Source: Candidatus Latescibacterota bacterium | Lineage (GTDB): Bacteria > Latescibacterota > UBA2968 > SICM01 | Assembly: GCA_965217865.1 (NCBI GenBank) | Contig: CBDCJO010000001.1 | Span: 552,972 to 616,971, forward strand | DNA length: 64,000 nt | Reading direction: 5' to 3' | Part shown: in pieces, positions 4,047 through 29,725 of the stretch | Layout: each line of letters begins with the position of its first letter | How positions within the stretch are numbered: position 1 is the first letter of the stretch | Position numbers and translations under genes: made by a program | Notes under the pieces: generated by a model | The model's database searches: none | What the model was told of the DNA's origin: nothing | What the model saw: only the letters and a program-made list of their open reading frames with translations

Positions 4047-4055
4047 CCCTGACCC

Positions 4056-14007: not shown

Positions 14008-14303
14008 CCTTCATCGTCTCCTTGTGGTAAAAAGAAGGATTTTTTTAAGCATCTATTAATATTACGGTTTTATCCACTTGAAGTCAACGACTATTTCGAA
14101 CAAAAACGGGCCCCCGGTTCAGGCCTTCTCCCCCGCGGAAAAAGGAATTCAATGCCCTTCATCATCTTGACATTCCCATACAAATCGCTTATTATTAAGC
14201 GGTTCCGCTTATACCTAAAACCCCGCCTTTCCTCTTCGCCCAGGCATGATCTCTTTCCCTGCTCCCCTCTCTGATTACACGCGTGAATACTGAAGACCGC
14301 ATC

Positions 14304-16466
14304 ATGAATTCTGAAGACCACACGGAAAGGCTCCAAGGCGTCATAGAGCGGATCACCTACCGGGTCGAGGACACGGGCTACACCGTTGCCCGATTCCGCC
14401 CGAAAGGAAAAGGGGGGGGTATCGTCACAATCGTAGGTAACCTGGCCTCGGTAAACCCCGGCGAGAGCCTGATCCTGGATGGGGAGTGGTCCAAACACGC
14501 CCAGTACGGTCGGCAGTTCAAAGTCGTCACCAGTCGGACAGTCTATCCCACGACGCTGGAAGGGATCCGAAAGTACCTGGGGTCCGGCCTGATCAAAGGT
14601 GTGGGACCGGTCACCGCGGGCAGAATCGTCGATTACTTCGGAGAAGAAACCCTGGAAATCATCGAGAAGACACCTTCGCGGCTGACCAAGGTGGAAGGGC
14701 TTGGTCGCAAACGCGTCGAGATAATCCAGAGGGCATGGGAAGCCCAGCGGGAAATCAAAGAAGTCATGCTTTTCCTCCAGTCCCACGAGGTGAGCACGGG
14801 CCACGCGACGAAGATCTGGAAACACTACGGCAATTCCGCCATCTCCCTGGTGCGGGAGAACCCCTACCGCCTCGCAGACGATATATGGGGCTTCGGGTTC
14901 CTGACGGCGGACCGTATCGCACAGAAACTAGGCGTGGAGGCGCGCTCCGAGAAACGGATCCGGGCTGGGATTCGGTACGTGTTGGGCATGGCTGCGGATA
15001 ACGATGGGCACGTCTTTCTCCCCCTTGTGGAACTCACACGCAGGTGTTCCGAGGACCTCGATGTGGATGCCGACCTGGTTTCCCCCTGCCTTGAGACCCT
15101 CGAAGCCGAGGACGGGGTGATCGTCGAAGAGGATCGCATCTACATCCCCCCTCTTCGCCACGCGGAGCAGGGGGTGGCCACGCGCGTCCATCAGCTCACA
15201 TCCATCGCCAGGATCGAGACCGGTGATCTGAATGCCGAGATCGCAGCGGTTGAACGGAAGACCTCCATATCTTTCGCCGCGGGTCAGAAGGATGCTCTGA
15301 AGAAGTCCCTTTCCCACGGACTGCTGGTCATCACCGGTGGTCCTGGCACGGGCAAGACCACGACGATCATCGGAATACTCTCCCTTTTCGAGCGAAGGAA
15401 CAAACGGACCGCACTGGCCGCACCCACGGGTCGCGCCGCCCGGCGAATGACCGAAGCCACAGGCCGCGAAGCGAGAACGATCCATCGGCTTCTGAAATTC
15501 AACCCCCAGAGGATGTCTTTCGAACACGACGCCCACCATCCGCTCGAGGTAGACGCCCTGATCGTCGACGAGGTGTCGATGATCGATGTCGTACTTCTGA
15601 ACAGCCTCCTTCGCGCGGTACCGCTGACAGCGACCGTCGTCCTAGTGGGAGATGTGGACCAGCTCCCTTCTGTCGGTCCGGGAAACTGTCTCCGGGACCT
15701 GATCGGATCAGAGAGCGTCCCGGTCGTCGTCCTGAACGAGATCTTCAGGCAGGCTCAACAGAGCCGGATCGTCACGAATGCGCATAGGATCAACATCGGG
15801 GAGCTCCCTGAGATGCAACCCCAGAAAGACGCCGATTTCTTCTTCATCGAAGAGGAGGATCCCGCTCGCATCGCCGAGACGATCAAGGGCCTTTGCACGG
15901 TCCGCCTTCCCAAGACATACGGTCTGGATCCGATCCAGGATATCCAGGTACTCTCCCCGATGTACCGCGGGGAAACCGGGGCCACACATCTTAACGCCCT
16001 TCTCCAGGGATCCCTCAATCCCTTCGGTCCTTCCGTTCAGCGAGGGGATACCGCATTCCGGGTCGGGGACAAAGTGATGCAGGTCCGTAACGACTACACC
16101 CAGGATGTGTTCAACGGAGATCTCGGCGTGGTCTCAAAAATCGACCTCGAAGAAGGGTCACTCGAGGCCGCGTTTCCGCACCGCATCGAATACGACGTGT
16201 CGGACCTGGATAAGCTGGTGCTTGCGTATGCCATCAGCTGTCACAAAAGCCAGGGGTCCGAATACAAGGCGGTGGTGATGCCCATAACAACACAGCACTA
16301 TACCATGCTACAACGCAACCTCCTGTACACCGCCGTTACCCGCGCCCGGATGCTCGTGGTCCTGGTCGGCACACGGAAGGCCCTGGCCATCGCGGTCAAA
16401 AACAACAGCGTCGACGCACGCTACACATCATTGGTCGAAAAAATCCGGGAGAGGAACCCCGAATAG
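14304..16466 (+). CDS. recD2: SF1B RecD2-type ATP-dependent DNA helicase
   Basis: ~720 aa. N-terminal OB-like ERITYRVEDTGYTVARF, Walker A GGPGTGKTT, LIVDEVSM, VGDVDQLPSVGPG, and C-terminal YAISCHKSQGSE. Confidence 0.9.
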   Translation: MNSEDHTERLQGVIERITYRVEDTGYTVARFRPKGKGGGIVTIVGNLASVNPGESLILDGEWSKHAQYGRQFKVVTSRTVYPTTLEGIRKYLGSGLIKGVGPVTAGRIVDYFGEETLEIIEKTPSRLTKVEGLGRKRVEIIQRAWEAQREIKEVMLFLQSHEVSTGHATKIWKHYGNSAISLVRENPYRLADDIWGFGFLTADRIAQKLGVEARSEKRIRAGIRYVLGMAADNDGHVFLPLVELTRRCSEDLDVDADLVSPCLETLEAEDGVIVEEDRIYIPPLRHAEQGVATRVHQLTSIARIETGDLNAEIAAVERKTSISFAAGQKDALKKSLSHGLLVITGGPGTGKTTTIIGILSLFERRNKRTALAAPTGRAARRMTEATGREARTIHRLLKFNPQRMSFEHDAHHPLEVDALIVDEVSMIDVVLLNSLLRAVPLTATVVLVGDVDQLPSVGPGNCLRDLIGSESVPVVVLNEIFRQAQQSRIVTNAHRINIGELPEMQPQKDADFFFIEEEDPARIAETIKGLCTVRLPKTYGLDPIQDIQVLSPMYRGETGATHLNALLQGSLNPFGPSVQRGDTAFRVGDKVMQVRNDYTQDVFNGDLGVVSKIDLEEGSLEAAFPHRIEYDVSDLDKLVLAYAISCHKSQGSEYKAVVMPITTQHYTMLQRNLLYTAVTRARMLVVLVGTRKALAIAVKNNSVDARYTSLVEKIRERNPE

Positions 16467-16536
16467 GTGAACGTTCCCCCTTGCTTCCCTGCAGGTAGAT
16501 GGAAAACGAAATTCCTCTCCGATGACACCATCCCCG

Positions 16537-16564
16537 AATAAAAAAGGGCGGCCTATGGCCGCCC
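16537..16564 (-). terminator. Rho-independent terminator for the radical SAM gene
   Basis: On the minus strand, GGGCGGCC-ata-GGCCGCCC is followed by TTTTTTATT. Confidence 0.6.
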
Positions 16565-16594
16565 TTGAACGTGTTGATCGCCGGGGTGATCCGG

Positions 16595-18451
16595 CTATGG
16601 GGCTCTCTGCGGAAGGACACCATCATCCGGGACATAGGAATCGAGGATCCCCTGGATTTCCCCCTGGAATTTTTCCAGGGACCCCTGGACTTGATGGCGG
16701 AACTCCTCCCGGACCGTATGATAATATTCCTGCGCGGCCATCCGGAGGACCTCTGCGTTGTGATGCAGCGTCCTCCTGCGATCGTCCTGAAAATCCTCGA
16801 ACCGGGCGTGTATGGCCTGCATGAAACGGCTGGCGTACGCCCCCACGTTTCGTTGAAAGGCCTCGCGGGTGCCCTCGCGAAAACGCTCCAGGTGCTCCAG
16901 CGCCTCGGAGAAAAACGACTTCATCTCGTCCACGTGAAGCGCCTGTTGGGTGGTCAGGATCAGATGATGGCCCTGAACGGCGAGGCGTATCGCATCCGGA
17001 AAACTCTTCGGATGACTCCGAAGGGTCCGGAACATGAACTTCCAGTACTCCAATCGGTAATGTCCGGCGAGGCCCTGCCGCCAGAGCGACCTGAACAAGG
17101 CCTTGATCTCCGTCCCGGTGATCGGCATCTTGCTGATCGGGAACCGCGTCCGATTATCGAAAAAGGTCGAACAGCGTTCAAAAAAGATTTTGGGACTGTT
17201 CAGGGTCTCGACAGCGGTTCGGTGTCGATCCAGAAGCTCTTTTGGATCCATAACCGGCACATAGCTCAACTCCCGGTTGAAAATCCCGGAATCGCCCGTA
17301 TATTTGGCCCCCTGGACCAGACGCCCAGCACGGCCGAAACGCTTATAATCCGGCGTGTCGCGCAGGACGCCCAGGATCCCCACCATAGCAACCGGAATCC
17401 CGGCCTCCCGAATAAACGCGATCGTTCGATCGGCGATGTCGTCCGGGTCCGTATCGAGTCCCATGATGAACCCGGCCTGGACTTCAAACCCCGTCCGTTG
17501 CAAAATCCGGACCTTGTCCAGGAGCGGAGCCCCCCCCTGCAGGTTCTTCTGCGCCCCCATAAACTTCAAACTCTCCTCCACCGGGGATTCGATGCCGGCG
17601 AACACCTTGTCGAACCCCGCCTGGTACATCGCCTCCAGGAGATCGGGATCATCGCTCAACCGGATGCTGGCCTGCGTGTGAAACTGAAACGGGTAGTCCC
17701 GCTCCCTCTGCCAGGGAATGACCTCCTCCTCCATTGCCGCGCGAATCTTATCCCGGTTTCCGACAAAGTTGTCGTCCACGGCCATGACCGCCCCGCGCCA
17801 ACCCTCGTGGTAGAGGGCATCCAGCTCCTCAATGATCCTGCTCTTTCCCTTGACCCGGGTATCCTTCCCGTATAGGGATGGAATATTGCAAAATGTGCAA
17901 CTTTCCGGACAGCCCCGGGTCATCTGGATGACCATGTTGCTGTAGTCGTGCAGGTCGATCAGATCCCATCGGGGTAAAGGCGTCAGGGCTAGATCTCGAA
18001 ACTTTCCCCTTCGATCAATAGTTTCCCGCTCCGTCGAACCCGGATCGGAAATCATCCGCTCCACGACATCCAGGAACCCGTTCTCCGCCTCACCCAGATA
18101 GAATACCCCGTTGCCCTCAATCTCATCGTAATACTGGGTGGGCAGGGGTCCCCCGTTAAGTACAGGCACGCCGTAAGCGTTGCATCTCGCCATGATCTCT
18201 TCGAGGGATTGCCAGTGAATGATCATCGACGAAGTGATCACGATATCTGCCCATTCGAGATCCTCGTCCCGAAGCGGGGTCACATTGATATCCACCAATC
18301 GGAGCGTGTAGCTTTCAGGGGGCATCATGCCCGCGATCGTCAGCAAACCCAGAGGCGGAAAGGCAGACTTCTTACTGACCATTTTAAGGGCTTCGTCGAA
18401 ACTCCAGAATGTAATTGGGTTTTTCGGACAGGTCAGCAGGGCATTTGGCAT
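16595..18451 (-). CDS. B12-binding domain radical SAM protein with long C-terminal extension (DUF4070-like)
   Basis: 618 aa. B12-binding N-domain, radical SAM motif GCPESCTFC, helical C-terminal ~200 aa. Confidence 0.85.
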   Translation of the reverse strand: MPNALLTCPKNPITFWSFDEALKMVSKKSAFPPLGLLTIAGMMPPESYTLRLVDINVTPLRDEDLEWADIVITSSMIIHWQSLEEIMARCNAYGVPVLNGGPLPTQYYDEIEGNGVFYLGEAENGFLDVVERMISDPGSTERETIDRRGKFRDLALTPLPRWDLIDLHDYSNMVIQMTRGCPESCTFCNIPSLYGKDTRVKGKSRIIEELDALYHEGWRGAVMAVDDNFVGNRDKIRAAMEEEVIPWQRERDYPFQFHTQASIRLSDDPDLLEAMYQAGFDKVFAGIESPVEESLKFMGAQKNLQGGAPLLDKVRILQRTGFEVQAGFIMGLDTDPDDIADRTIAFIREAGIPVAMVGILGVLRDTPDYKRFGRAGRLVQGAKYTGDSGIFNRELSYVPVMDPKELLDRHRTAVETLNSPKIFFERCSTFFDNRTRFPISKMPITGTEIKALFRSLWRQGLAGHYRLEYWKFMFRTLRSHPKSFPDAIRLAVQGHHLILTTQQALHVDEMKSFFSEALEHLERFREGTREAFQRNVGAYASRFMQAIHARFEDFQDDRRRTLHHNAEVLRMAAQEYYHTVREEFRHQVQGSLEKFQGEIQGILDSYVPDDGVLPQRAP

Positions 18452-18632
18452 GTCATTCTCCCGTTACCGGCTTGAACTTCGACATTCCGGAGGCCTTCTG
18501 AAACGCCGGAATGAAAAGGAGAAAGGCGCGTTGGGAAAGAGGATGGAAAGATGGTTCACACAGACGCGTGCAAATGTAGCATAAGCATAACCAGAACGGG
18601 AACTTGAGTCAAGGAAATTTCGAAAAGGTTCA

Positions 18633-20357
18633 TTAAAACAGGTGGTTCATGCGGATATGAACCATACCCCCACCCAGACCCTCGTCCTGTCCGAACCCGA
18701 CATCCACCCCAACGACCCCCGCCCGGGAATCCGTGCGCAGGCCTGCGCCGTAACCCGTACGGTAGAGCGTCATCCCCCTGACCTCCGGGCCGAACGCCAA
18801 CCGGTCTGAAATCACCCCCGAATCCAGAAAGAGAAACACCCGAGATCGCCTCCCGATCAGGAATCGGTGTTCAACCCCGCCCCACAGAGCCCTGACCCCA
18901 GCGAACTGCTCCTCCCGATAGCCCCTCAGGGAAGACGCACCGCCGAGCCGCAGTTTTTCACTCAGGGGAGCAACGGCTTCTCCGGTGTGGATCCCCCGAA
19001 AATGAGCCATCACCGCGATGGTCTGACCCTTGAAAATCGGGAAAAATCGCTCCGCGTCCCCCTCAAGGCTCCAGCGGTTGACCCTCCTGTTTGTCCCCGG
19101 GAACGATGCGCGGCCGAAAGACCCGGCGGCTTTGATGAAGCTCCCTTTCCTAGGGTTGTTGGGGTGGTCCCGGGTCTCATACGAAAGCCCCATCATGCTC
19201 CGCCACGTCCGACTCCGGGGAGCAAGCCCCAGACCCAAAGAGTCGGGGGAGACCTGATCCCATCCGGATTCAACCTCCAGCCCAAACGCACCTGTCAGCG
19301 GAATACGGACGCCGAATCCGACCCCGGCCGAGACATAGCCCGGCCGCTGAAGCAACTCAAACCGGAACCTTCCCGCAAGGGGCGTCGAACCGATCCAAGG
19401 CTCATCGTAATGAAAGATCAGGTCGGATGCCGAGGGCCCCCTCCGGTCCCATCGGATTGAAGCGCGACGACCCGTCCCCGCCAGGTTTCGAAATGACAGG
19501 TCCACCCGGCCCGCCATGTAGCCTCCCCCGCTTTCCGCGCCCGGCACGTACCCGACGACCCCATCGATCTGGTTGGCTCTCCCCTCCTCGACCTCGAGGG
19601 ACAGGTGGACCGAATCGTTTTCAGGTTTGTGCATCAGCTTCACATCGCCGACCCGATCGAAGAGGCCGGACCGGATCAATCGACTCCGTCCGCGATCGAC
19701 CCGGCTCTGGTCATAGAGCTCCCCGACACTGAGGCCCATCATTCGCCAAAGAACATCCGACCGCGTGGACCTGGCTCCGGACACCTTCAACCCGCCGACT
19801 TGAACGGACGGACCCTGTTCGATCCTCAGCGAGAGATCGACCACCCCGTTCGAATCGGGGACCCCGATTGTCGGGTAAACGGCACAGAAAGGATAACCTC
19901 TGTTCTCGTAGCTGCGGAGGATATTTTCGATATCCGCTTCAAACCGGTCCGGCCGGAACACCGCTCCCAACTTCGTTTCAAACCCGTCAAGGACATCGGG
20001 AGACACCGACGCCGCAAGATGGATGCGGCGGACTCGAATCCGGGGTCCCTCCCGAAGCGGAAAGACCACCTCGCAGCGACCATTTCCTTGAGTGACTACG
20101 GGAAAATCCACCTCTGCGAGGTACCGTCCGGCCCTCCGGCAATGGTCCAAAATCCGTTCCACATCCCGATGAAGGAAGAGACTATCCAGGACCGCTCCCG
20201 GCCTGGTTTCCAGGCTGTTTTGGAGATCGGTAACCGAAAGATCCCGTCCCCCCTCGATCCGAACCGAAGTGATCACTGGAGACTCTGCGAATACCGGGGG
20301 TACTGCGTGAAAAAGCAGAAGGGGCCAGAAAGTCAAGCATATATGGAATGGTCTCAT
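18633..20357 (-). CDS. BamA/TamA-family outer-membrane protein (POTRA + Omp85 barrel)
   Basis: The track ORF (to 20720) has a non-secretory N-terminus. The internal Met at 20357 gives the signal peptide MRPFHICLTFWPLLLFHAVPPVFA, followed by POTRA-like repeats and a beta-barrel ending in ...NHLF. Confidence 0.8.
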   Translation of the reverse strand: MRPFHICLTFWPLLLFHAVPPVFAESPVITSVRIEGGRDLSVTDLQNSLETRPGAVLDSLFLHRDVERILDHCRRAGRYLAEVDFPVVTQGNGRCEVVFPLREGPRIRVRRIHLAASVSPDVLDGFETKLGAVFRPDRFEADIENILRSYENRGYPFCAVYPTIGVPDSNGVVDLSLRIEQGPSVQVGGLKVSGARSTRSDVLWRMMGLSVGELYDQSRVDRGRSRLIRSGLFDRVGDVKLMHKPENDSVHLSLEVEEGRANQIDGVVGYVPGAESGGGYMAGRVDLSFRNLAGTGRRASIRWDRRGPSASDLIFHYDEPWIGSTPLAGRFRFELLQRPGYVSAGVGFGVRIPLTGAFGLEVESGWDQVSPDSLGLGLAPRSRTWRSMMGLSYETRDHPNNPRKGSFIKAAGSFGRASFPGTNRRVNRWSLEGDAERFFPIFKGQTIAVMAHFRGIHTGEAVAPLSEKLRLGGASSLRGYREEQFAGVRALWGGVEHRFLIGRRSRVFLFLDSGVISDRLAFGPEVRGMTLYRTGYGAGLRTDSRAGVVGVDVGFGQDEGLGGGMVHIRMNHLF

Positions 20358-20432
20358 AGAGCAGAGTATAGCCGAACCCCGGGTTATTCGCAAATTTTTT
20401 TCACAATAACTCTCTCTCACAGGAGGCTCAGG

Positions 20433-20920
20433 ATGGGAAGATATTCGAAACAGGCCTGGAAAGGCAAGCATCTTTTTATGGGTATCGATCTTCATCGCAA
20501 AAGTTGGCACGTGACAATTCGTTCCGAAGACGGTTTGGTCCTTTTTTCCAACAACATTGGTGGCCGTTGGGAGGACCTGGAGCGATTGTTGTCCCGGTTC
20601 TCCGACGCGGGACAGATCTCGGTCGTCTACGAGGCAGGGTATTTTGGGTTTTGGGTATATGATCGTCTGATCGACTATGGGGTAGATGCGCGGGTTACGC
20701 CGCCTCATATGATTTCTCAACGCTCTGGTAGTCGGGTGAAAAATGATCGTCTGGATAGCGGGAAGTTAGCCGGGTTCCTACAGTCTGGCCATTTGGAGGC
20801 CGTATATGTTCCGACTTTGGAAGAGCGAGCGCACCGGCAAGTGTCCAGACGTCGTCGTCAGTCCATCGGCAATCGGGTTCGGGTTCAAAACCGGATCAAA
20901 GCAGAGCTTCGGGTGAATGG
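20433..20920 (+). pseudogene. IS110-family transposase, N-terminal fragment
   Basis: AGGAGG RBS then MGRYSKQAWKGKHLFMGIDLHRKSWHV...VVYEAGYFGFW...VKNDRLDS (DEDD-type IS110 N-domain). It breaks off at ~20920, where an unrelated minus-strand ORF abuts. Confidence 0.8.
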
Positions 20921-21354
20921 AACGACACGATGGTGTCCGCCGCCTGGGCGGCGAGGGTGGCCTGCCGGAGGTCGAGCCGGGCGGAGAAGCTGTCGCGCCC
21001 GTGGGAGGCCATGCCATACCTGTTGCGGAGTTCGCACAAGCCCTGGATGGTCTGGAGCAGACCCCGGATCGTCTTTTCCACCGATTCGCGCGCCTTCGCC
21101 GGGTCGGGATGGTTACGCGGCAACAGGGCCAGGCGGTTGGTCGTCTCCTTCAAGAGCTTCGGTGCATCCCAGTTGGGGTCCGCCGGCTGGCCGATATCGG
21201 CGAGCACCGTCTTGCAGACGGATTCGACCAGCGTCTTGGAAAGATCGAAGGCGAAGTCCGGCACGCTCTCCAACGCACTCTCGATGGCATGGATCTGCTG
21301 ATCGATAGCCTCGGCGAGCGGACCGTCGAGTACCGCCGCGCGAGCGCCGACCAT
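20896..21354 (-). CDS. Abi_C-like (abortive-infection C-terminal domain) protein, probably truncated at both ends
   Basis: ...LCELRNRYGMASHGRD... resembles the Abi_C signature. The last 6 codons and stop are antisense IS110 sequence. The upstream end abuts the IS256 fragment. Confidence 0.5.
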   Translation of the reverse strand: MVGARAAVLDGPLAEAIDQQIHAIESALESVPDFAFDLSKTLVESVCKTVLADIGQPADPNWDAPKLLKETTNRLALLPRNHPDPAKARESVEKTIRGLLQTIQGLCELRNRYGMASHGRDSFSARLDLRQATLAAQAADTIVSFHSPEALL

Positions 21355-21414
21355 CTGAAAGCGAGCGCGAGCTGAACGGGATCTCGACCGGCGTGGTTTA
21401 CCGGCACCCCTGTT

Positions 21415-21980
21415 CGTCACGACCGACGGAGCCGGTGGGCTTATCCAGACCATCGACCAGATGTGGCCGAAGAGTCTGCGCGGGACGCTGCTGGGTGCAT
21501 CGGATGCGCAACTTTGCAGCCAAGGTGCCCGATGCGCGCTGGCATGAGATCAAGCCGTATCTGGTGATGATTCGTGACGCCCCGGATCTTCAGGCCGGCC
21601 AAAGTGCGGTGCGAGAGTTTCTGGAGAAGTTCAGCAAGGAGTTCCCCGGTCTGTGCAAGTGTCTCACGGAGGACCTCGAAGCTCTCCTCGCACACCTCCA
21701 GCTTCCCTGGCGACTCCGGAAGTTCGCCCGCACCACCAACCTGATCGAACGCAGCTTTGTCGAGGAACGCCGCCGAACCAAAACATTGCCGCGATTCTTC
21801 TCCGAAAAGAGTTGCCTGAAGCTCGTCTATGCTGTTCTCATCCGTGCCGCTGCCAGGTGGCAGAATATCAACATCACGTCCACCGAACTGCTCCAGCTCC
21901 AGCTGCTCTATGAGGAACGACAGATCGCACCACCGGCTGAAATGGTAGCCGTTGCGGAACCTCACTGGACCTCCAGTTGA
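21415..21980 (+). pseudogene. IS256-family (Mutator-type) transposase, C-terminal fragment with frameshift
   Basis: VTTDGAGGLIQTIDQMWPKSLR in one frame, then RCWVHRMRNFAAKVP...TTNLIERSFVEERRRTK in another (shift near 21480). The N-terminal half is missing. Confidence 0.8.
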
Positions 21981-22002
21981 AGGTTTGCATTTTGCAGGAC
22001 GC

Positions 22003-23538
22003 TTAAGACTTGACCCAATCCTGTCCAGACGTTGAACACTTTTCATAGAATTGGATAGCCTTTTCGTATATTTCTTCGCGGTGCTTTGCCAAACTGTGTG
22101 TATCGTCGCCAAAGACGATTAGCGTACAGTTGCCGCCAGAGTCATTAATGAGTTTCTCGACGTGCTGCATTTCGCTTGTGGTCGCGACGGTATCAAGCGC
22201 GCCATGAAACAGCAGGATTGGCCTCTTTATATGGGTAGCATGTGTCAATACGGATCGCTCAACTAATGCTTTCTCGCGTTCCCTTGGACTGCTTGGAAGG
22301 ATTCTATCATGATGGAGGCGCAAGACTCGAAGACTTGTGCAAGTACACGTGGAGATCCCACCTACGAATGGTGAAGATGCATCTGCCAGGGCAAGGAGAC
22401 TTAGAAACCCGCCATAGCTATTACCGAACAGAGCGATTCTCCTGCCTGTACTAAAGTGTTGCTGCCAGTAGATTCCACAGTCTAATACATCCTGAACGTC
22501 TGCGACCCCGGCGACCCCGGTGTTCGCTCGATCGAGGTCCTCGCCGAAGCCGGTAGAGCCCCTATAAGCCACGCGCACAATCTCGAATCCCTGGCGAAGC
22601 AGCCCTAAAGCCCATGAGTCATTTCTATCGAGACTGCCTCCAGGCCCACCATGCACATACAGAACAGCGAGCTCTCGTGGAGACGGCGGAACCAACCGCT
22701 GTACTGGAAGAGCTAAACCATCCGAAGCAGGAACCGTAAATTCCTCAAGCCTAAAACTCGGTACGGGTTCGGTATGCTCAGCTACGACAGTGCATCCTTC
22801 AGATTCTTTCCAGCGGTAGACCTTATGGTCTGTTCCAAGAAAACAGACGGTATCGTTGTCGGCTCTGAAGGCGATTTGATACCAAGTCAGGTTCTTCGCC
22901 ACGCTAACCCCGGAATCCAATCTGATGCGTGAATCTACGCGGCCTACGGGAAACTGCACCCAAACAAGCTCATCGGGTTTGACGCAGAGAAGCCTGTTCG
23001 TCGAGTTTGAAAATGCACCTTCTTTCACAGGCCCATCTTCATAGATCCACCCGGAACCTCGGCCCGTAAGATCTACAACGTGAACGGTCCCTTCTTTCTC
23101 GTCGGACACGTGAAGTGCAAACCAGCTTTCGTCACGTGACCAGGGGAATCGACCAAATCGGTGACCATTTGACTCGGGCAGGAGCGAGGATATTCTTTGA
23201 CGTTGAAGATCAAATAAATGCACTTTCTTAGGCTTGTTAAGCTCCTCCAGGTTTTGCCGATGAAATGCAATCAGGTCACCGGATGGGGACCAATTTGGAA
23301 ACCTGTCCACACTGTCCTTCGATGCGGTCAATCTATCAAGTTTGCCGCTATCCAATGTGAGGTGAAAAATGTCAGGTGGCCGTTTATTCAATTGCTCGGT
23401 ACTGTGCTTTTCGTAGGCAGAAAACACGAGGCTTGTGCCGTTTGGCGACCACTGGCTGAACCCCGCAGGCGTCCGGTCGGGACGACGAAACCGGCTCGCT
23501 CGATGTCGATCAGGAGGTTCCGGAAGAACTGCTTTCAC
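22003..23538 (-). CDS. S9-family serine peptidase (prolyl oligopeptidase/DPP type), N-terminus probably lost
   Basis: GNSYGG nucleophile elbow, alpha/beta-hydrolase C-domain, N-terminal propeller-like WSPNG/WSPSG repeats. The first ~25 codons are antisense to the DUF4011 fragment. Visibly AT-richer than the flanks. Confidence 0.7.
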   Translation of the reverse strand: MKAVLPEPPDRHRASRFRRPDRTPAGFSQWSPNGTSLVFSAYEKHSTEQLNKRPPDIFHLTLDSGKLDRLTASKDSVDRFPNWSPSGDLIAFHRQNLEELNKPKKVHLFDLQRQRISSLLPESNGHRFGRFPWSRDESWFALHVSDEKEGTVHVVDLTGRGSGWIYEDGPVKEGAFSNSTNRLLCVKPDELVWVQFPVGRVDSRIRLDSGVSVAKNLTWYQIAFRADNDTVCFLGTDHKVYRWKESEGCTVVAEHTEPVPSFRLEEFTVPASDGLALPVQRLVPPSPRELAVLYVHGGPGGSLDRNDSWALGLLRQGFEIVRVAYRGSTGFGEDLDRANTGVAGVADVQDVLDCGIYWQQHFSTGRRIALFGNSYGGFLSLLALADASSPFVGGISTCTCTSLRVLRLHHDRILPSSPREREKALVERSVLTHATHIKRPILLFHGALDTVATTSEMQHVEKLINDSGGNCTLIVFGDDTHSLAKHREEIYEKAIQFYEKCSTSGQDWVKS

Positions 23539-23860
23539 TCATGGCTGAGGCCGAGGACGATCCCGACTGGTTGGCGAAGCGTCACCTCGACAACAAGCTC
23601 CAAACGCCATACGACACGAGCCGCCTCGACATCCTCCTCAGGAACACCTACCGCCACGCCCACCTCTCTCTTGAAGAACAGGGCGTCAACATCCTCTACC
23701 TGGCCCTGGGAACGCTCAACTGGTATGAATCGAAGTCGAGCGACATCCAGCTGATGGCGCCCCTGGTTATGGTCCCGGTAGAGCTGTCGCGGGAAAGCGC
23801 ACGGGCTCGCTTCAAGGTGCGTTGGACGGGCGAGGAGATCGACGGGAACTCGGATACGGT
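23490..23860 (+). pseudogene. DUF4011-type helicase N-terminal fragment
   Basis: ...EEQGVNILYLALGTLNWYE...APLVMVPVELSRES..RFKV matches the DUF4011 pattern found at the N-terminus of large SF1 helicases. No helicase core follows. Confidence 0.55.
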
Positions 23861-23867
23861 CAACCGC

Positions 23868-24416
23868 CTACGGTATCGGCGAAGAATGCGTCTCGCCATC
23901 CCGGCCTCTTATCTCTCCTAATTGTTCGAGTGCATCCCGGTGCAGCTTTCGCAAGTTCGAGGCTATCTCCGCGATTTTCCCCGTCGTCACGTGCACCTCA
24001 ACGACGATGCTGTCCCTTCTGGGTGTCTGCTGCACCATCTCCCACGCTTCCCATCGGCCTCCATTTGTTAGCACTGCGTAACGGGCGCCGATTTCCGTTG
24101 CGTATCCAGACGCCTGCCTTCGATCCGTGTCCTTCGGCCCTGAATCTGGAGGCTTGGCCTCCACAACGGCAAGGAATGCACCTGTCGACGACACGAGAAC
24201 GTAGTCCACCTTGTTCCCGTTGGCACGATGCTCTAGCCGGACCCGCGCCGGGTCTTTGACGTCCCAACCCAATGCGTTCAACACCCCGTCGATAACCAGC
24301 GCCCTCGTCGCCGTCTCATTCCCGTGGAGGTACTCGTAATGCTCGGTCAGAACCTTCCGAGCTTCCTTGATGCTCTCCTCAAGCAGGGTCCCCTTGCCAT
24401 CCTCCAGCTCAGCCAA
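23868..24416 (-). CDS. HsdR_N-like (PD-(D/E)xK restriction-endonuclease fold) protein
   Basis: 182 aa. Pattern VDYVLVSSTGAFLAVVEAKPP...YAVLTNGGRWE, as in type I restriction enzyme R N-terminal domains. Confidence 0.55.
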   Translation of the reverse strand: MAELEDGKGTLLEESIKEARKVLTEHYEYLHGNETATRALVIDGVLNALGWDVKDPARVRLEHRANGNKVDYVLVSSTGAFLAVVEAKPPDSGPKDTDRRQASGYATEIGARYAVLTNGGRWEAWEMVQQTPRRDSIVVEVHVTTGKIAEIASNLRKLHRDALEQLGEIRGRDGETHSSPIP

Positions 24417-24433
24417 TGCTCACTCCCTAACCC

Positions 24434-24756
24434 TTCATGAAAGTATTTGAACTTGGATACCCCTTCCTTTGGAAGGGGAGAAGAAGTTTAGCTTGCCGAA
24501 GGCAAGCTAAAAGGGTGTCTTATCGTGTTCAGACCACTGAGACACAAATCGACTCAGGAGGCATACGATGGGACTCCGACGGACCAGTCACGCAGTCTAT
24601 GATAGCCAGTATCCTCTGGTATGGGCACCGAAGTACCGGAAATGGATTCTGCGAGGTGACCTTCGAGCGTATGTGGGCAAGCTGTTTCATCGGATAGCAG
24701 AAGATTTTGGGGGTGGGAGTGGTTAATGCCCCGCCCTTTGGGCGGGGTGGTTTACT
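24434..24756 (+). mobile_element. IS200/IS605 internal-deletion derivative (MITE-like, 323 bp)
   Basis: Collinear with both ends of the 1726-2336 copy in inverted orientation. Keeps all terminal hairpins and the first ~48 tnpA codons, joined directly to the last 4 codons. The junction lies in a shared TTTGG. Confidence 0.85.
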
Positions 24757-24787
24757 CGCACGCGCGTCCCTGTAGTCGCCCGACGGT

Positions 24788-25225
24788 CTACTTGCCACGA
24801 CGTTCCCATGCCCGGCCCAAGGCCCGAATACTTTCCCAGATCGATCTCCATGAGCTAGGCTGGGTGTCTCTCCTGGGCACTTCGCCTGTTTCCGTTTGGT
24901 AGTAGCTGTTGCGTCTGGTCCAGGCCTTTTGCCGCACCAGCGCGATTTCAGCTTCCGAAAAGCCGCGCGCCCACCGGACGATTCCTTCATCGATCCAGTA
25001 GTGTGACCTGCACGAAAAACTCCAGTTCCCGATGGACGGCTCCAGGGAGATCGTTCTCCCGTCATAGGTGAGCCTCCACTCGACGGGGCCAAGAGGGGTC
25101 ACCACCTCCTCCCCGCACCCGCACGCACACCGGTGGACCACCGTGCCGAAACGCATCGACACATACAGAACACCGTCATCCAGCTGTTCCGGTATGTGAT
25201 CCACGAATTCGTTGCGCAATCTCAT
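24788..25225 (-). CDS. Cys/His-rich small protein, DUF6527-like (putative Zn-binding)
   Basis: 145 aa. HRCACGCGEEVVTPL ... LEPSIGNWSFSCRSHYWI. Start overlaps the upstream stop (ATGA 25222-25225). Confidence 0.6.
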   Translation of the reverse strand: MRLRNEFVDHIPEQLDDGVLYVSMRFGTVVHRCACGCGEEVVTPLGPVEWRLTYDGRTISLEPSIGNWSFSCRSHYWIDEGIVRWARGFSEAEIALVRQKAWTRRNSYYQTETGEVPRRDTQPSSWRSIWESIRALGRAWERRGK

Positions 25226-26412
25226 TGGCTATCGTCAGCCTGCCCCAGCATCCTGTTGCTCATGTGATTTCCGTCGATCGTGTAAGTGCTCCTGTCCTCT
25301 TTGCCAAGGTCCATGTAAAACCCCCGGTGCTTCTTCCACCGGATTACCGCGAGGGCCGCATTCAGCGCGTTCAGTTCCACGATCTGCACGTTCCTCTCGT
25401 ACTCGCCGACGTCCCGCAATCCGCCCTCACCGCGTCGTACCGCCGAGCTCTTCGGCGTCTCACAGAAGCTCGTTCTCACGACCCCTACCAGCTTGTCGTC
25501 CGTCTTCTCGATGCCCATTCCCACGTCGACGAACGGCACTCCCATCCGGTCCAGTGTCGGCAGCAGCCACTGCCTAGTTTCGTTGTCGTCGACGGCGACA
25601 AACACGAAATCGAGGTCGCCAAGCACATTGACGTTATCGGCCTCCACATCGAATTCGTGCGCGACGACGCCGCTCCTTATCTTCGCGTACCGTTCGCTGT
25701 ACAGTTGAGCCTTGGTCGGTCTCTTCTCGAGCTCCTCGGCTGTCGTCGGACCGGGCGCGCGGAACGCGTTGTGCTGCTCGAACCGGTCGCCGTCGAACAG
25801 ATGGATCTCCGCGACGCGTGTCTTGCTGACGTAATCCAGAATGTACGATCCCGTACCTCCGAGCCCGATTATGCCGATCCTGTCTCCGGACAGTCTCTCG
25901 TTCAACCGGGTTATCCCAGCGCGGCTCGACGCAGTTTCCATGAACACGAAAGGGTCGTTCGGGTCTGCCGACAGCACCAGTTTCCCCGCGCAGGCTATCG
26001 CTCCGGGGTCTATTCGTTTTGCACACCGTCCAATCACCTGCGCGTAGTGCGTCAGCTTGTGATGGTAATCCTCGTACTTCCCCGCCACCGGCCTTGCCGA
26101 GAAGTAATGGTCGACCCATAGGCCTTCGGCGAGCTCTTGGCGTTGGCTGCTGTTCCGCAGAGCCTCGATCGGCGCACCGCGGTCGTCGCAGGGGTACTCG
26201 CCCGCAAAGTACATCGTGTGATCTGGCGGCGGCCCCGTTTCCGAACCGTCGACGGCTAGGGGACAGACGAGCTGACCGTACTTCACGGTTCGCTCGCTTG
26301 TAACGTACGGGACGCGATGCAGCACCAAATGCCCGGAGCGGACCTCTATCTCGTAGCCGTCCTCGACGAGTCGCTTAAGGTCCTCCCTACGACTGATCAG
26401 TTCTTGTGACAT
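25222..26412 (-). CDS. ThiF/MoeB/E1-like adenylyltransferase with ~165-aa N-terminal extension (possible E2-like module)
   Basis: 396 aa. GIIGLGGTGSY (GxGxxG), LFDGDRFEQHNAFR and FVAVDDNETR are typical of E1 adenylation domains. The N-terminal part carries Cys in the contexts GQLVCPL and GEYPCDDRG. Confidence 0.85.
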   Translation of the reverse strand: MSQELISRREDLKRLVEDGYEIEVRSGHLVLHRVPYVTSERTVKYGQLVCPLAVDGSETGPPPDHTMYFAGEYPCDDRGAPIEALRNSSQRQELAEGLWVDHYFSARPVAGKYEDYHHKLTHYAQVIGRCAKRIDPGAIACAGKLVLSADPNDPFVFMETASSRAGITRLNERLSGDRIGIIGLGGTGSYILDYVSKTRVAEIHLFDGDRFEQHNAFRAPGPTTAEELEKRPTKAQLYSERYAKIRSGVVAHEFDVEADNVNVLGDLDFVFVAVDDNETRQWLLPTLDRMGVPFVDVGMGIEKTDDKLVGVVRTSFCETPKSSAVRRGEGGLRDVGEYERNVQIVELNALNAALAVIRWKKHRGFYMDLGKEDRSTYTIDGNHMSNRMLGQADDSQ

Positions 26413-26659
26413 TGATAATCGTTCCGTCCCGCACCTTCAGCCTTTGCCCCTCGTCTAGCTCTCCTTCGGGTATTCGGCTGCCGGCCTCCCGGAACGTGAT
26501 CGTGAACACGATCTGCGGGCCCCTGGCCGGATCGTCGAATGCAAGGTCCACTAGCTCGTCGAACGACAGTTCGTCACGCTCGACCTGCCTTTGCCGCCCA
26601 TTGACCGTTATCAAGAACGTCTTGTCGTCCAATCGGTCTAGTTGGTTTTCCTTACTCAC
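26387..26659 (-). CDS. multiubiquitin-like single beta-grasp (Ubl) protein
   Basis: 90 aa. FLITVNGRQRQVERDELSFDELVDLAF...GQRLKVRDGTIINVTRTDQS matches my memory of the Multi_ubiq family consensus. It lies immediately upstream of the E1-like gene. Confidence 0.65.
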   Translation of the reverse strand: MSKENQLDRLDDKTFLITVNGRQRQVERDELSFDELVDLAFDDPARGPQIVFTITFREAGSRIPEGELDEGQRLKVRDGTIINVTRTDQS

Positions 26660-26859
26660 GAGATTCTCCTCCTATGCTCAGTCGTGTCCTTAGAGATAGT
26701 TTGAAAACGTTCGATGCCTGGCTTCATAAAACTCACGACCTCGTCCGGCTCGACAAATTTTGTTTCTCCGCCACAGAATTTCTGGAAGAGTTTGTGTGTG
26801 TCCGGGGTCTTTCCCACCAGCGCGAGAATCTTGATACCCGGAAGATCTGGCTTAGACAC
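26656..26859 (-). CDS. hypothetical 67-aa protein (GTG start)
   Basis: ORF overlaps the Ubl start by 4 nt (ATGA) and the upstream 40-codon ORF by 8 nt. No recognisable motif. Confidence 0.4.
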   Translation of the reverse strand: MSKPDLPGIKILALVGKTPDTHKLFQKFCGGETKFVEPDEVVSFMKPGIERFQTISKDTTEHRRRIS

Positions 26860-26974
26860 GCGTTTTCGCTATCGGTCGATGCCGGATAATGTAGATGTCC
26901 GAGGGCGGCTTCTCGACAGCAGGATTCTCTTTGGCGAATGCCCCAACGCCGAGTTCTTCGATGTTCGGTTCCAT
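26852..26974 (-). CDS. hypothetical 40-aa leader ORF of the Ubl operon
   Basis: ATG 26972-26974 lies 8 nt downstream of a strong GGAGGAGG RBS (26983-26990). Sequence MEPNIEELGVGAFAKENPAVEKPPSDIYIIRHRPIAKTRV. May be the 5' part of a frameshifted ~107-aa gene together with 26656-26859. Confidence 0.35.
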   Translation of the reverse strand: MEPNIEELGVGAFAKENPAVEKPPSDIYIIRHRPIAKTRV

Positions 26975-27056
26975 TAGATTAACCTCCTCCTAGTTGCCCA
27001 GGATCACAACTTAAGAGGGTGGCGTCCGACAGACCAGAACACGAAGCCTTGGTCAG

Positions 27057-27086
27057 GTAGTACAGATTTCTGAGAATCTGAATCAA
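27057..27086 (-). promoter_or_regulatory. putative promoter with operator palindrome for the Ubl operon
   Basis: On the minus strand, TTGATT (27081-27086) - 18 nt - TACTAC (27057-27062). The 18-nt spacer is exactly the inverted repeat CAGATT-N6-AATCTG (27063-27080). Confidence 0.4.
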
Positions 27087-27232
27087 ACATCGTACATCTC
27101 CTTTGAGAAAGGGCTGAAAGTTTGCGCTTTGTTTCCGAGACATTAACCCTTATATTATAACCTACCGAATTATGGAGAAGAGCCCTAATAATATAACCCA
27201 ATTAATTATATTGTCAAGGGGAAAAATTGGCC

Positions 27233-27562
27233 ATGTCAGAATTTGGAGAGAGGCTGAGGAGAGCAAGGCAGAATAAGGGGATGCTGCAGGAAGACTTAGC
27301 ACAGGCAATGGGGCTAACTCAGGCATCGATTTCCCAGTTCGAGAAGGGACAAAGGACACCCACCCCGGAAAATATCCGTAAATTAGCTCAAATACTGGGG
27401 GTGAAGGAGGAGGACCTAGCAGGCAAAGATAAGGGGAATTTCGAAAGGGCATTGTTAATGCGAAATATGCGAGATTTGTCCCCTGGATCTCTCAGTAGGA
27501 TCAACGAGTATGTGGAGCTGATAAAGGAGAGTGAAAGAGCAAGAAGACGGAGAAAGAGATGA
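27233..27562 (+). CDS. XRE-family helix-turn-helix transcriptional regulator
   Basis: RLRRARQNKGMLQEDLAQAMGLTQASISQFEKGQRTPT is a canonical Cro/C1 HTH. A ~45-aa C-terminal tail follows. Confidence 0.9.
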   Translation: MSEFGERLRRARQNKGMLQEDLAQAMGLTQASISQFEKGQRTPTPENIRKLAQILGVKEEDLAGKDKGNFERALLMRNMRDLSPGSLSRINEYVELIKESERARRRRKR

Positions 27563-28434
27563 TTTTGAGACGTACAATAGCGGCCTACGCCTCTCAGCTA
27601 CGTGAAAACATGGGAATCGGTGAAAACGCCGCCATTGGACACCTCGTTCATCATATCAAAGAAGCGGGATATGAGTATCTTGAGGAATCCTTTGGTGATG
27701 AATTTTCAGGATTTTCGCAATCCCTTGGTGGAGGCAAGTATCTTATAGGATTCAATCGTGAGCACCTCTGGAGCATCAAATTTCAAAGATTCACTTTGTC
27801 TCACGAATTAGGGCACCTTACTATCCCGGAGCACCGCAGGATATTGGACAACACAGGCTTGCATCGGTCCAAGAGTGAGTTTCAATCCCAAGATCCGATT
27901 GAGCGGGAGGCGGATTACTTCGCCATATGCTTTCTGACTCCGAGGAAGTCCTTTCAAGATGCTATGAAACACAAGGAATACACAAAAGACACCATCTTTG
28001 GGCTCTCCGAAAAGTTTGGGATATCGGCCTATGCTACTATCCTTCGGTTCATAGAACTGACAGACCAGTCTTGCACTTTGATCGTGAGTAACAGCACTGG
28101 AATGATTGAATACGAAAGACGGTCCAACCGGATGAAGGAATCCTGCCAACAGAACTTTTTGGCTGGAAAGAAAATTAAGGAGACAACTCTTACTTTTGAC
28201 TATATCAAGGGCCGGAAAGGGGAGAACAGCTGTACCGTCTCTCTTCGGGAATGGTTTGAGGATCTGCCTGAAGAGATTGAAATCGATGCGACCGAATCTG
28301 TAATCGACCTGGGATATAACAACAAGTATCTGACCTTGTTGACTCCACATGTTACGGATGTGGACGAATATAGTAGGGACTGGGAATCACCAAGATCATT
28401 CCCAAAACACGGAGGTCGACCTAGTACCTATTGA
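27559..28434 (+). CDS. ImmA/IrrE-family zinc metallopeptidase (DUF955) with C-terminal domain
   Basis: 291 aa. HEXXH in SHELGHLTIPEH. ATGA overlap with the XRE gene. AT-rich relative to the neighbouring operon. Confidence 0.85.
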   Translation: MILRRTIAAYASQLRENMGIGENAAIGHLVHHIKEAGYEYLEESFGDEFSGFSQSLGGGKYLIGFNREHLWSIKFQRFTLSHELGHLTIPEHRRILDNTGLHRSKSEFQSQDPIEREADYFAICFLTPRKSFQDAMKHKEYTKDTIFGLSEKFGISAYATILRFIELTDQSCTLIVSNSTGMIEYERRSNRMKESCQQNFLAGKKIKETTLTFDYIKGRKGENSCTVSLREWFEDLPEEIEIDATESVIDLGYNNKYLTLLTPHVTDVDEYSRDWESPRSFPKHGGRPSTY

Positions 28435-28444
28435 CATTTAAAAC

Positions 28445-29725
28445 GAGCGTGCCGAATGTTTGTTATCTCCCCGATCCGTTCGCTGTGGGAGGAGGATCGG
28501 CATGCCCAACAGGAAGTACATCGTCCGTCCAAGTTGCGATGAGCGGAAGCACTTGCAGGATCTGGTAAGCAAAGGCCGGACACAGGCCTACCGGATCCGA
28601 CACGCACACATTCTGATGAAGGCCGACGCGGATGGCCCTTGCTGGGGCGACGAAGCCATCGCCCAAGCGTTTTCGTGCCACAGACGCACCGCGGAAGGCA
28701 TTCGCAAGCGCTTTGTGGTCCAAGGGCTCGACGCAGCCCTTGAGCGGAAGAAGCGGGAACGACCGCCCATCGAACCGATTCTGGACGGCGAAAAGGAAGC
28801 TCGCTTGATCGCCCTGGCCTGCAGCCAGCCGCCGAAAGGTCGTAGCCGCTGGACGCTGGAGTTGCTCGCTGACAAGCTGGTTGAACTCAACATCGTCGAG
28901 AGCATCTCCTATCGGACCGTGCAACGGGCGCTCAAAAAAACGAACTCAAGCCCCATCTGAAAACGTGCTGGGTGATTCCGCCCAGGGAAAACGCCGCATT
29001 CGTAGCTTGCATGGAGAATCTTCTGGATCTGTATCACCGGCCCTATGATCCGGAAAGGCCGCTTTTGGCCATGGACGAACACCCCGTGCAGTTGACCGGA
29101 GAGACACGCATCCCGGTCCCGGAAAAACCGGGGCATCCCCGACGTCACGACTATGAGTATGAGCGTAACGGCACAGCCGCGAATTTCTTGTTCCTCGAGC
29201 CCCTGACCGGACGTCGGAAGGTCCACGTCCGGGAACGCAGGACCGCCGTAGACTGGGCTTACGAGATCCAGGAACTGCTTGAGGTGGACTACCCGGATGC
29301 GCAAGTCGTGGTGCTGGTCTGCGACAACCTCAGCACTCACACCATCGCATCTCTCTACAAGGCCTTCCCACCCGAAAAGGCCCGTTCTCTAGCCAAACGC
29401 CTCGAATTGCACTACACGCCCAAGCACGGTAGCTGGCTCAATATCGCCGAGATCGAACTGAGCGTCCTTGCCAGACAATGCCTGCACAGCCGCATTCCTG
29501 ACCTGCAGACCCTCACCAACGAAGTGGAGGCCTGGAAATGTGATCGAAACGAGAAACACAGAACCCTTGATTGGCAGTTCACGACCACCGACGCCCGCAT
29601 CAAACTGAAGAAGCTATATCCCAAGTTTTAGGTGTCATGGTGTACTAGGTAGAGGGAGGAACCCCGGACAGGCGATTTCACAAAGTCAGTCACTAAACAC
29701 TTTCGGATTAGCAGATAAGGGCTTG
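28445..29725 (+). mobile_element. IS630-family insertion sequence
   Basis: Two-frame transposase plus imperfect terminal inverted repeats (..GCCGAATGTTTGTTA.. near 28455-28475, reverse complement ..TCCGAAAGTGTTTAGT.. near 29700-29722). Ends are approximate. Confidence 0.75.
28502..29631 (+). CDS. IS630-family transposase (OrfA-OrfB via -1 frameshift)
   Basis: OrfA spans 28502-28960 (HTH). The OrfB frame runs to 29631 (DDE: DEHPVQ, CDNLSTH, SWLNIAE). A -1 slip on the A7 run 28934-28940 yields ...RALKKNELKPHLKTCWVIPP..., the usual IS630 junction. Confidence 0.85.

Follow-up and report, generated by a model that had tools for sequence, protein, structure and literature searches.

The question raised by a compact gene cluster of Candidatus Latescibacterota bacterium is whether it belongs to a described class of bacterial ubiquitin-like conjugation systems or to a new one. 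The cluster lies at positions 24788-28434 of a 64,000-nucleotide stretch of contig CBDCJO010000001.1 (assembly GCA_965217865.1); this whole stretch is called the window, and all positions refer to it. A preliminary description, made from the letters and their open reading frames (ORFs), had listed five ORFs on the minus strand and two on the plus strand, all of which are present at the coordinates it gave, and had wavered between the Bub class and something undescribed. Its suspicion of Bub was right: the locus is very probably a new example of the already described, and thus not undescribed, Type II Bub operon (formerly "6E.2/DUF6527"), which would be controlled by a CapH/CapP switch and be a mosaic of two Bub operons.

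The name Bub (bacterial ubiquitination-like) was given to the "6E/DUF6527" operons in two Corbett-laboratory preprints (Ye, Gong, Chambers and Corbett, bioRxiv 10.1101/2024.11.21.623953; Gong et al., bioRxiv 10.1101/2024.11.21.623966). Type II Bub (6E.2) is defined by BubA, a ubiquitin-like protein (Ubl), BubBD, a fusion of a ubiquitin-conjugating (E2) and a ubiquitin-activating (E1) domain, and BubE, a DUF6527 protein, with the JAB peptidase typically absent (10.1101/2024.11.21.623953). According to these preprints, the pathway proceeds through oxyester intermediates, and E. coli BubBD requires R219 for adenylation, Y342 in the crossover loop, and S106 in the E2 domain, an invariant serine accompanied by an invariant His and Lys. 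BubE is described there as a Zn-dependent Ser/His protease that removes the conjugates (C57/C59/C61/C99, S92, and H102 in Citrobacter), and CapH together with CapP is reported at 168 of 544 Bub operons (31%).

The bubA, bubBD and bubE genes

The bubA gene (26387-26659, minus strand) starts with GTG behind its own ribosome-binding site (RBS; AGGAGG, 26673-26668) and encodes a single beta-grasp Ubl (Ubl_1) of 90 residues with the C-terminus ...NVTRTDQS. The beta-grasp or multiubiquitin nature proposed earlier for this protein is borne out by Pfam, whose family Multi_ubiq matches with E=8e-14 and 52 bits, the cut-off being 24.5. BubA aligns end to end, up to the last residue, with the third of the beta-grasp domains in BubA from E. 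coli ZDHYS365 (PDB 9cd2, E=3e-7), and the tails at the aligned end are VTRTDQS in the window and VTQTDKS in 9cd2, so that ...TDQS is matched by ...TDKS. The TDQS end had been regarded as an anomaly. The same tail, NV[TS]xTDxS followed by the stop codon, is found in BubA of all 15 other Type II loci checked (BubBD identity 42-96%), and because it is conserved there and matches 9cd2, the non-Gly end is a signature of Type II.

The overlap of 26 nucleotides between bubA and bubBD (26387-26412) is likewise kept in 15 of these 15 loci. It is read out of frame, so that one stretch encodes both the end of BubA (NVTxTDxS) and the start of BubBD (MSxxLIS). The invariance of this overlap across Type II loci implies that both termini are constrained and that translation of the two genes is tightly coupled. 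Among the other overlaps in the preliminary description, the ATGA shared by bubBD and bubE (25222-25225) and the 8 nucleotides shared by two small upstream ORFs (26852-26859) are present, whereas positions 26656-26659 read GTGA instead of ATGA, bubA starting with GTG.

The bubBD gene (25222-26412, minus strand) encodes 396 residues, with an E2-like DUF6791 domain at residues 10-160 and an E1 adenylation domain of the ThiF family at residues 171-298. The ThiF/E1 assignment made before is supported by Pfam (E=5e-13), and the N-terminal extension, noted earlier without a family, has a Pfam family of its own, DUF6791 (E=6e-49). The protein passes the NCBIfam PRK06153.1-4 equivalog (462 bits against a cut-off of 352, residues 1-386), and the NCBIfam models for ThiF, MoeB, TcdA, and Cap2 score it far under their cut-offs. 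Conservation was calculated over the window protein and 145 full-length representatives of a 50%-identity library (146 sequences). In this diverse set, S105 is conserved at 99%, H65 at 100%, R218 at 100%, and Y338 at 99%; they are the candidate catalytic residues of the E2-like domain (S105 and H65), the adenylation site (R218), and the crossover loop (Y338). Their numbers fall within a few of S106/R219/Y342 of the E. coli ZDHYS365 protein, to which S105/R218/Y338 correspond. The N-terminal cysteines, put forward earlier as possible catalytic residues, lose that role to the invariant Ser105, His65, and Tyr338, as conservation of the five Cys in the window protein reaches only 1-66% (16% for C50, 66% for C75).

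These scores and the BubA tail bear on a first alternative, a ThiS/MoaD-type sulfur-carrier or cofactor-biosynthesis pathway, which the preliminary description had named as the outcome opposed to conjugation. A ThiF-family adenylation domain does adjoin a small beta-grasp protein here, and the NCBIfam ThiF, MoeB, and TcdA models do match weakly. However, those matches reach 14-31 bits against cut-offs of 150-650, while PRK06153 passes its own; the carrier ends in Ser and not in Gly-Gly; no conserved Cys and no rhodanese or sulfurtransferase domain is found; and the neighbors are DUF6527 and CapH/CapP genes, not genes for thiamine or molybdopterin. A sulfur-carrier identity is extremely improbable and was ruled out.

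A second alternative, suggested by the comparison with CBASS Cap2 in the preliminary description, is a thioester system, either Cap2-like, as in Type II cyclic-oligonucleotide-based antiphage signaling systems (CBASS), Pycsar, or metallo-beta-lactamase (MBL) operons, or of the Bil type. The order of the E2-E1 fusion is that of Cap2, the CapH/CapP switch is also known at CBASS operons, and PADLOC E1-E2 models give weak matches (E 7e-8 or worse), which are confined to the adenylation domain and span only residues ~160-290. Against this stand the NCBIfam 6A-MBL cap2 model, which gives 21.5 bits where 320 are required, the lack of a conserved Cys in both BubBD domains, and the absence of any gene for a CD-NTase, cyclase, JAB/Cap3, or effector. 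Type II CBASS with Cap2/Cap3 and Type I/II Bil do share with the locus E1/E2-based conjugation and, often, the regulators; the window differs from them in lacking a CD-NTase, a JAB peptidase, catalytic cysteines, and an E1 of the IAD-AAD-CYS architecture, and the likeness is confined to the adenylation fold. Type II CBASS was ruled out on the absence of CD-NTase, effector, Cap3 JAB, and conserved Cys, and Bil on the absence of JAB (BilC), a separate E2 (BilB), and a Cys domain, together with the different architecture of its E1 (BilD). The earlier judgment that the locus is neither Bil nor Type II CBASS agrees with these differences in architecture and genes, and a thioester system has next to no probability.

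The bubE gene (24788-25225, minus strand) overlaps bubBD by the ATGA mentioned above and encodes a protein of 145 residues, whose DUF6527-like label is confirmed (Pfam DUF6527, E=6e-26). The C4 zinc site C33/C35/C37/C72, the serine S64 of the "PSI" motif, and H75 align with both Type II and Type I BubE, and the Type I spacing in this alignment, S-x6-C-x2-H, exactly matches S92/C99/H102 of Citrobacter. From this motif alignment, BubE is predicted to be a Zn-stabilized Ser/His protease with the dyad Ser64/His75, in place of the RING-like module considered earlier. A search of the PDB with the BubE sequence found no relative, which is consistent with no BubE structure having been solved so far.

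Pairwise comparison with four relatives gave ratios of nonsynonymous to synonymous substitution rates (dN/dS) of 0.06-0.28 for bubA, 0.10-0.21 for bubBD, and 0.34-0.39 for bubE. With values of 0.06-0.39, the three genes are therefore under purifying selection. Family membership, conservation of the catalytic residues, and this selection are matters of observation for the locus.

With the closest described system, Type II Bub of E. coli ZDHYS365, the window agrees in gene order and domain content (Ubl, E2-E1 fusion, DUF6527, without JAB), in the Zn site and Ser/His dyad of BubE, and in having CapH with CapP upstream, as in 31% of Bub operons. The window differs from it in having Arg instead of the usual Lys at BubBD position 107, a dead Type I Ubl gene that separates bubA from the promoter, and a clade-specific fourth gene with a PD-(D/E)xK domain. 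No JAB match was obtained among the seven proteins of the locus with Pfam and PADLOC, and profile search found no separate E2 gene in the operon, both as stated in the preliminary description. Type I Bub (6E.1) is represented by BubAB/BubCD/BubE of Citrobacter sp. RHBSTW-00271 (PDB 9ea4, 9ea5, 9ea8, 9eae, 9eav). The E1 adenylation domain of its BubCD is the best PDB match of the window BubBD, both by sequence and by the fold of an AlphaFold2 (AF2) model (Foldseek; the whole-chain comparison is dominated by the E1 domain and is uninformative on the E2 part), and the BubE motifs are common to both, but the window has no JAB-E1 fusion, no Ubl-E2 fusion, and no separate E2.

An identical layout (CapP and CapH divergent from a small gene, BubA of the Ubl_1 kind, BubBD, and BubE) is already annotated on a Tritonibacter RefSeq plasmid, and the locus is therefore of an already described kind. 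Homologues of BubBD number in the thousands; they occur on 126 PLSDB plasmids, and none was found in the phage collection. An Rfam scan detected no RNA family within 23700-28600.

The upstream Ubl gene and the CapH/CapP module

Two tiny ORFs of 40 and 67 residues, listed before as separate and without a family, precede bubA on the minus strand and together form one broken gene, a Type I-like Bub Ubl pseudogene (26677-26974). The strong RBS GGAGGAGG, correctly noted at 26983-26990, lies 8 nucleotides ahead of the ATG at 26974 and belongs to this dead gene. The 67-residue ORF gives an N-terminally truncated Multi_ubiq match (E=9e-5, under the Pfam cut-off) and the 40-residue ORF gives none; joined, they match Multi_ubiq proteins of 107-112 residues at ~70% identity over 95-100% of the length. 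The intact homologues end in ...DTTEG plus 0-4 residues. Nucleotide alignment reveals an extra G at 26882/26883 (a +1 frameshift) and a GAG-to-TAG nonsense change at 26869-26871, and a third lesion is placed at the 3' end, where the homology stops right after ...ACT GAG (TTE) at 26677 and the codon for the final Gly is gone. At 26678, directly abutting the pseudogene, the Type II cassette sets in. The preliminary description had called the module free of truncation and frameshift; as its two small ORFs are one gene that is frameshifted, interrupted by a nonsense codon, and truncated at the 3' end, the module is not fully intact.

It could be supposed that the small ORFs are genuine separate genes, or that programmed frameshifting makes of them a second functional Ubl acting with the operon; the RBS ahead of the first ORF, the tight overlaps, and the weak Multi_ubiq match of the second would fit. 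Their joint match to a single family over nearly its whole length speaks for one gene, however, and the frameshift is accompanied by an in-frame TAG where the relatives have GAG. Moreover, the bubA leader has taken the place of the terminal Gly region, and neither ORF occurs in any close relative of the cassette. This explanation is very unlikely.

The intact relatives of the pseudogene (loci L012-L016) are the first genes of operons composed of Ubl, Prok-E2_E, and JAB-ThiF (with or without DUF6527). In these Type I-like Bub operons the Ubl (~109 residues, ending ...TTEG plus 0-4 residues) and the Prok-E2_E protein (136 residues) are encoded by separate, overlapping genes, and upstream, in the same direction, lie genes for an HTH protein and for a protein of 222-325 residues that is weakly CapP-like (E=0.002). 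The pseudogene thus resembles the Citrobacter system in being a Type I-type Ubl with intact relatives ending in Gly, while those relatives have an unfused Ubl and E2 in place of the BubAB fusion. Apart from the shared E1 fold, none of the other Type I Bub genes (E2, JAB-E1, BubE) is left in the window, which indicates that the Type II cassette replaced everything downstream of the Type I-like Ubl and was not simply inserted.

Divergently from these genes lie capH (27227-27562, plus strand) and capP (27559-28434, plus strand), which overlap by 4 nucleotides and encode an XRE-family helix-turn-helix (HTH) repressor and an ImmA/IrrE (M78) Zn-metallopeptidase. The XRE-ImmA pair of CapH/CapP type recognized earlier is upheld: CapH is matched by PADLOC capH (E=7e-17) and Pfam HTH_3 (E=5e-18), and CapP by PADLOC capP (E=1e-39) and Pfam Peptidase_M78 (E=1e-11). 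In the alignment of CapP with its relatives, the HEXXH residues H82/E83/H86 are invariant. Translation of capH probably starts in fact at the ATG at 27233, for a product of 109 residues as in the relatives (CapH of L017 begins MSEFGERL). At the other end of the module, the last ~13 residues of CapP (...SRDWESPRSFPKHGGRPSTY; 28373-28445) have no counterpart in the relatives, which are 278 residues long. ORFs of the IS630 type (HTH_32 and DDE_3, split over two frames) start directly after the capP stop, and the insertion of this insertion sequence (IS) may have altered the 3' end of capP.

The divergent promoter/operator region (27145-27226) was examined by promoter scan, repeat search, and conservation. 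A sigma70-like promoter on the minus strand is directed toward the bub genes (-35 TTGACA at 27217-27212, -10 at ~27195-27188; 11 of 12 matches). The boxes CTTATAYTATAACC (27149-27162) and TRATAATATAACC (27185-27198), of the "ATA-TATAACC" type (repeats D1/I1/I3), overlap this promoter, and boxes and promoter alike are conserved in L017 and L019. The two boxes are candidate CapH operators, with CapH binding inferred from the sequence. No terminator-like site is found between the promoter and bubA.

The arrangement resembles the CapH/CapP switch (Lau et al. 2022, as cited in the Bub preprints) in its XRE HTH gene overlapping a divergent M78 HEXXH peptidase gene, in having PADLOC capH and capP as best models, and in the repeated boxes that overlap the promoter. 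It differs in the lower G+C (GC) content of the module and in its closest relatives, which control another kind of operon; the response to damage is predicted. These closest CapH/CapP relatives (L017-L020) share 68-70% protein identity and ~70% nucleotide identity over 27188-28372, and are divergent from an operon for a 76-residue Ubl-like, a 125-residue E2-like, and a 482-486-residue JAB-ThiF protein. The GC content is 45% over capH/capP (27001-28000) against 57-60% over the bub genes (25001-27000) and a window average of ~55%, a contrast consistent with a separate origin of the regulatory module. For the 185 nucleotides between 26959 and 27145, no match was found among the collected sequences, and CapH/CapP may have arrived either with the Type I Ubl or by way of a further junction. 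A scan of JGI metagenomes with CapP returned 53 pattern matches, of which 0 were confirmed.

The cassette, its fourth gene and its relatives

Eleven genome or metagenome loci share the bubA-bubBD-bubE cassette, with or without a fourth gene. At 70-95% nucleotide identity the unit (23853-26678 in the window) is found in L001-L009 and L024-L027, with a synonymous distance (dS) of ~0.11 to the closest. The metagenome-assembled genomes (MAGs) that carry it span five phyla, namely Acidobacteriota, Pseudomonadota (alpha and gamma), Gemmatimonadota, Bacteroidota, and Chloroflexota, and several bear names of marine or sponge-associated lineages. The nucleotide homology of the window to L001-L009 (75-95%) is limited to 23853-24438 and 24756-26678. 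The common unit starts just 19 nucleotides upstream of bubA, and it includes the AGGAGG RBS and no promoter. In L002, L003, L005, and L006 a further ~150-230 nucleotides upstream of bubA are shared (−157 to −227, L002 against the others), which the window does not have. Identity of 70-95% across five phyla implies recent cross-phylum transfer of a promoterless cassette. As judged from these alignments, the locus is very probably a mosaic in which such a cassette was joined at 26677/26678 to a decayed Type I-like Ubl gene, beside a CapH/CapP module of lower GC content.

The fourth cassette gene (23868-24416, minus strand), which falls outside the span covered by the preliminary description, encodes a stand-alone 182-residue protein with a nuclease domain of the HsdR-N-type PD-(D/E)xK kind (D71, E86, K88), supported by Pfam HSDR_N_2 (30.8 bits, above the cut-off of 25). 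A profile built from its orthologues (nine sequences) finds PDB 3h1t (E=6e-4), a type I restriction R subunit, at the nuclease domain and with the D...EAK residues aligned. Downstream of bubE, the gene is intact in 8 of 11 close-clade loci, a truncated remnant in one, and absent in two, and it is absent in the distant Type II loci L010, L011, L022, and L023. Its homologues on plasmids are HsdR-type or helicase fusions that are not annotated beside Bub genes, and the linkage to Bub is therefore clade-specific. The main text of 10.1101/2024.11.21.623953 mentions no nuclease, effector, or accessory gene. Compared with the 165 residues of most relatives, the window protein is longer by 17 codons (23868-23918), because its gene lacks the stop codon that usually follows ...ALEQ; the C-terminal end varies from locus to locus.

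Between bubE and the fourth gene lies a miniature insertion derived from IS200/IS605 (24439-24755; 317 base pairs with end hairpins and a 52-residue N-terminal fragment of TnpA). It is a clean insertion after TTCAT and is absent from L001, L002, and L003. A longer copy of the element is present at 1727-2331, and its ends are 96-98% identical to those of the internally deleted copy at 24439-24755; from these two near-identical copies, the element has been recently active in the genome. The preliminary description had the module bracketed by mobile DNA. Both the IS200-derived sequence and the IS630-type ORFs do occur, but the former is inside the four-gene cassette and not at its edge.

The junctions of the cassette were also compared. 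At L026 (4171-7856, Chloroflexi MAG GCA_026713245.1) a fragment of one aldehyde dehydrogenase gene is found on each side of the cassette, and the right junction cuts the fourth gene after ~45 codons (...YLEGNETRTRALVID). A precise mobile-element model for the cassette was rejected, because the right junction of L026 falls inside the fourth gene and the left junction of the window inside another gene; junctions within genes indicate illegitimate recombination. Beside the CapH/CapP relatives at L019, L020, and L021 (~4020-5512), the pair of 76- and 125-residue genes occurs twice in tandem, in diverged copies, followed by a single JAB-ThiF gene, an arrangement resembling one more remnant of cassettes being exchanged at this kind of promoter.

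Two further ideas are tentative and have a modest chance of being correct: that the fourth gene, which in five phyla accompanies bubA-bubBD-bubE in a promoterless cassette of four genes, may be a functional partner of this Bub subtype (the missing effector, or else a target or sensor under the control of BubA conjugation), and that CapH/CapP promoters may be docking sites for repeated cassette swaps, as suggested by the dead Type I Ubl here and the duplicated pairs at L019-L021.

The surroundings of the relatives (L001 8039-12078; L017 102-2755 and 6919-12837) are defense-island-like, with genes of the types Mrr_cat, AAA with Peptidase_S8, DarT/Macro, HigB, type I restriction-modification subunits, AAA_15 ATPase, and SLFN/AlbA_2. 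In the window, 12253-23538 is occupied by ordinary chromosomal genes (a thiamine pyrophosphate enzyme, a RecD2-type helicase, B12/radical-SAM, Omp85/POTRA, and an S9 peptidase), and the right end of the cassette at 23853 is close to the edge of the variable region. A tRNA scan found no tRNA gene in the window, and no tRNA-linked island boundary is thus visible.

Functional state and predicted pathway

As far as sequence can tell, the features of Type II Bub are present, apart from one conservative Lys-to-Arg change and an undecided fold search. These two exceptions, together with several features of the surroundings, weigh against the reading as a working Type II Bub operon. BubBD position 107 is Arg in the window and Lys in 86% of the 146 sequences and in at least 90% of the close clade; the nearest relative, L002, also has Arg. 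No Lys of the E2 domain is invariant in the 146-sequence set, and K119 (86%) is present in the window, but K107 could be the "invariant lysine" described beside the E2 serine, replaced by Arg here. The AF2 model of residues 1-165 is confident (predicted local distance difference test 80, predicted template modeling score 0.79) but has no match in the PDB with E<0.1 by Foldseek; Atg10, UBE2H, UBE2R1, and Cdc34 are among its weak top matches, all above that value. By hhalign, a profile of the N-terminal domain gives E=0.003 but only 10% probability against the 125-residue E2-like proteins of L017-L021, and no match (E=0.56) to the Prok-E2_E-type E2s of L012-L015; the predicted E2 nature of the domain rests on Ye et al. 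Transcription from the promoter to bubA must cross ~530 nucleotides, a stretch that contains the dead gene and its strong RBS. The IS200-derived insert has a terminator-like hairpin on the operon strand (24511-24487), and the fourth gene may be uncoupled by this insert. IS elements abound in the surrounding island, and the operon could therefore be silent. In addition, the authors of the Bub preprints report phage protection for none of the Bub operons.

Part of this evidence would fit a decaying, non-functional remnant, that is, a cassette in a degenerate IS-rich island that has lost its native upstream region and is silent or becoming a pseudogene. The three-lesion pseudogene directly upstream, the IS200-derived insertion inside the cassette with IS630 abutting capP, the missing native ~220 nucleotides of L002, L003, L005, and L006, and the K107R change of BubBD all point that way. 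The dN/dS of the fourth gene (0.18-0.69) is 0.54-0.69 against the closest relatives, above that of bubBD, which, being based on small numbers, is only suggestive. On the other hand, bubA, bubBD, and bubE are of full length with all near-invariant residues present and the low dN/dS values given above; the bubA RBS and the coupled overlaps are intact, as are capH, capP, and the promoter/operator region, and transcription would meet no terminator-like site before bubA. A remnant is accordingly improbable, though less so than the other alternatives, and an operon of Type II Bub remains the favored reading.

For such an operon, the chemistry, regulation, and biological role are inferred by homology with the biochemically studied systems of E. 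coli ZDHYS365 and Citrobacter. CapH would repress the divergent promoter at ~27188-27217, and upon DNA damage or phage infection CapP would cleave CapH, so that the derepressed operon would be transcribed through the dead upstream gene. A BubBD dimer would then adenylate the C-terminal carboxylate of BubA (Ser90), which would pass as an oxyester to Tyr338 of the E1 crossover loop and then to Ser105 of the E2-like domain, and would finally be joined to lysines of the targets. BubE, through its predicted Zn site and Ser64/His75, would take the Ubl off again.

Bub is a recently described ubiquitination-like chemistry with oxyester rather than thioester intermediates, and the chemistry of this locus is not new: it is mostly an ordinary Bub operon with an evolutionary footnote. 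The modest novelty lies in the junction of Type I with Type II, in a nuclease-domain gene specific to the clade, and in how one cassette has spread at 70-95% nucleotide identity. The locus supplies a compact Ubl_1 Type II representative from uncultured bacteria and a specific example in which one Bub type has replaced another under a damage-responsive switch. It also supplies a candidate accessory gene with a nuclease domain, a possible effector or target. The fourth gene, if it is functionally linked, would offer a handle on the purpose of Bub conjugation.

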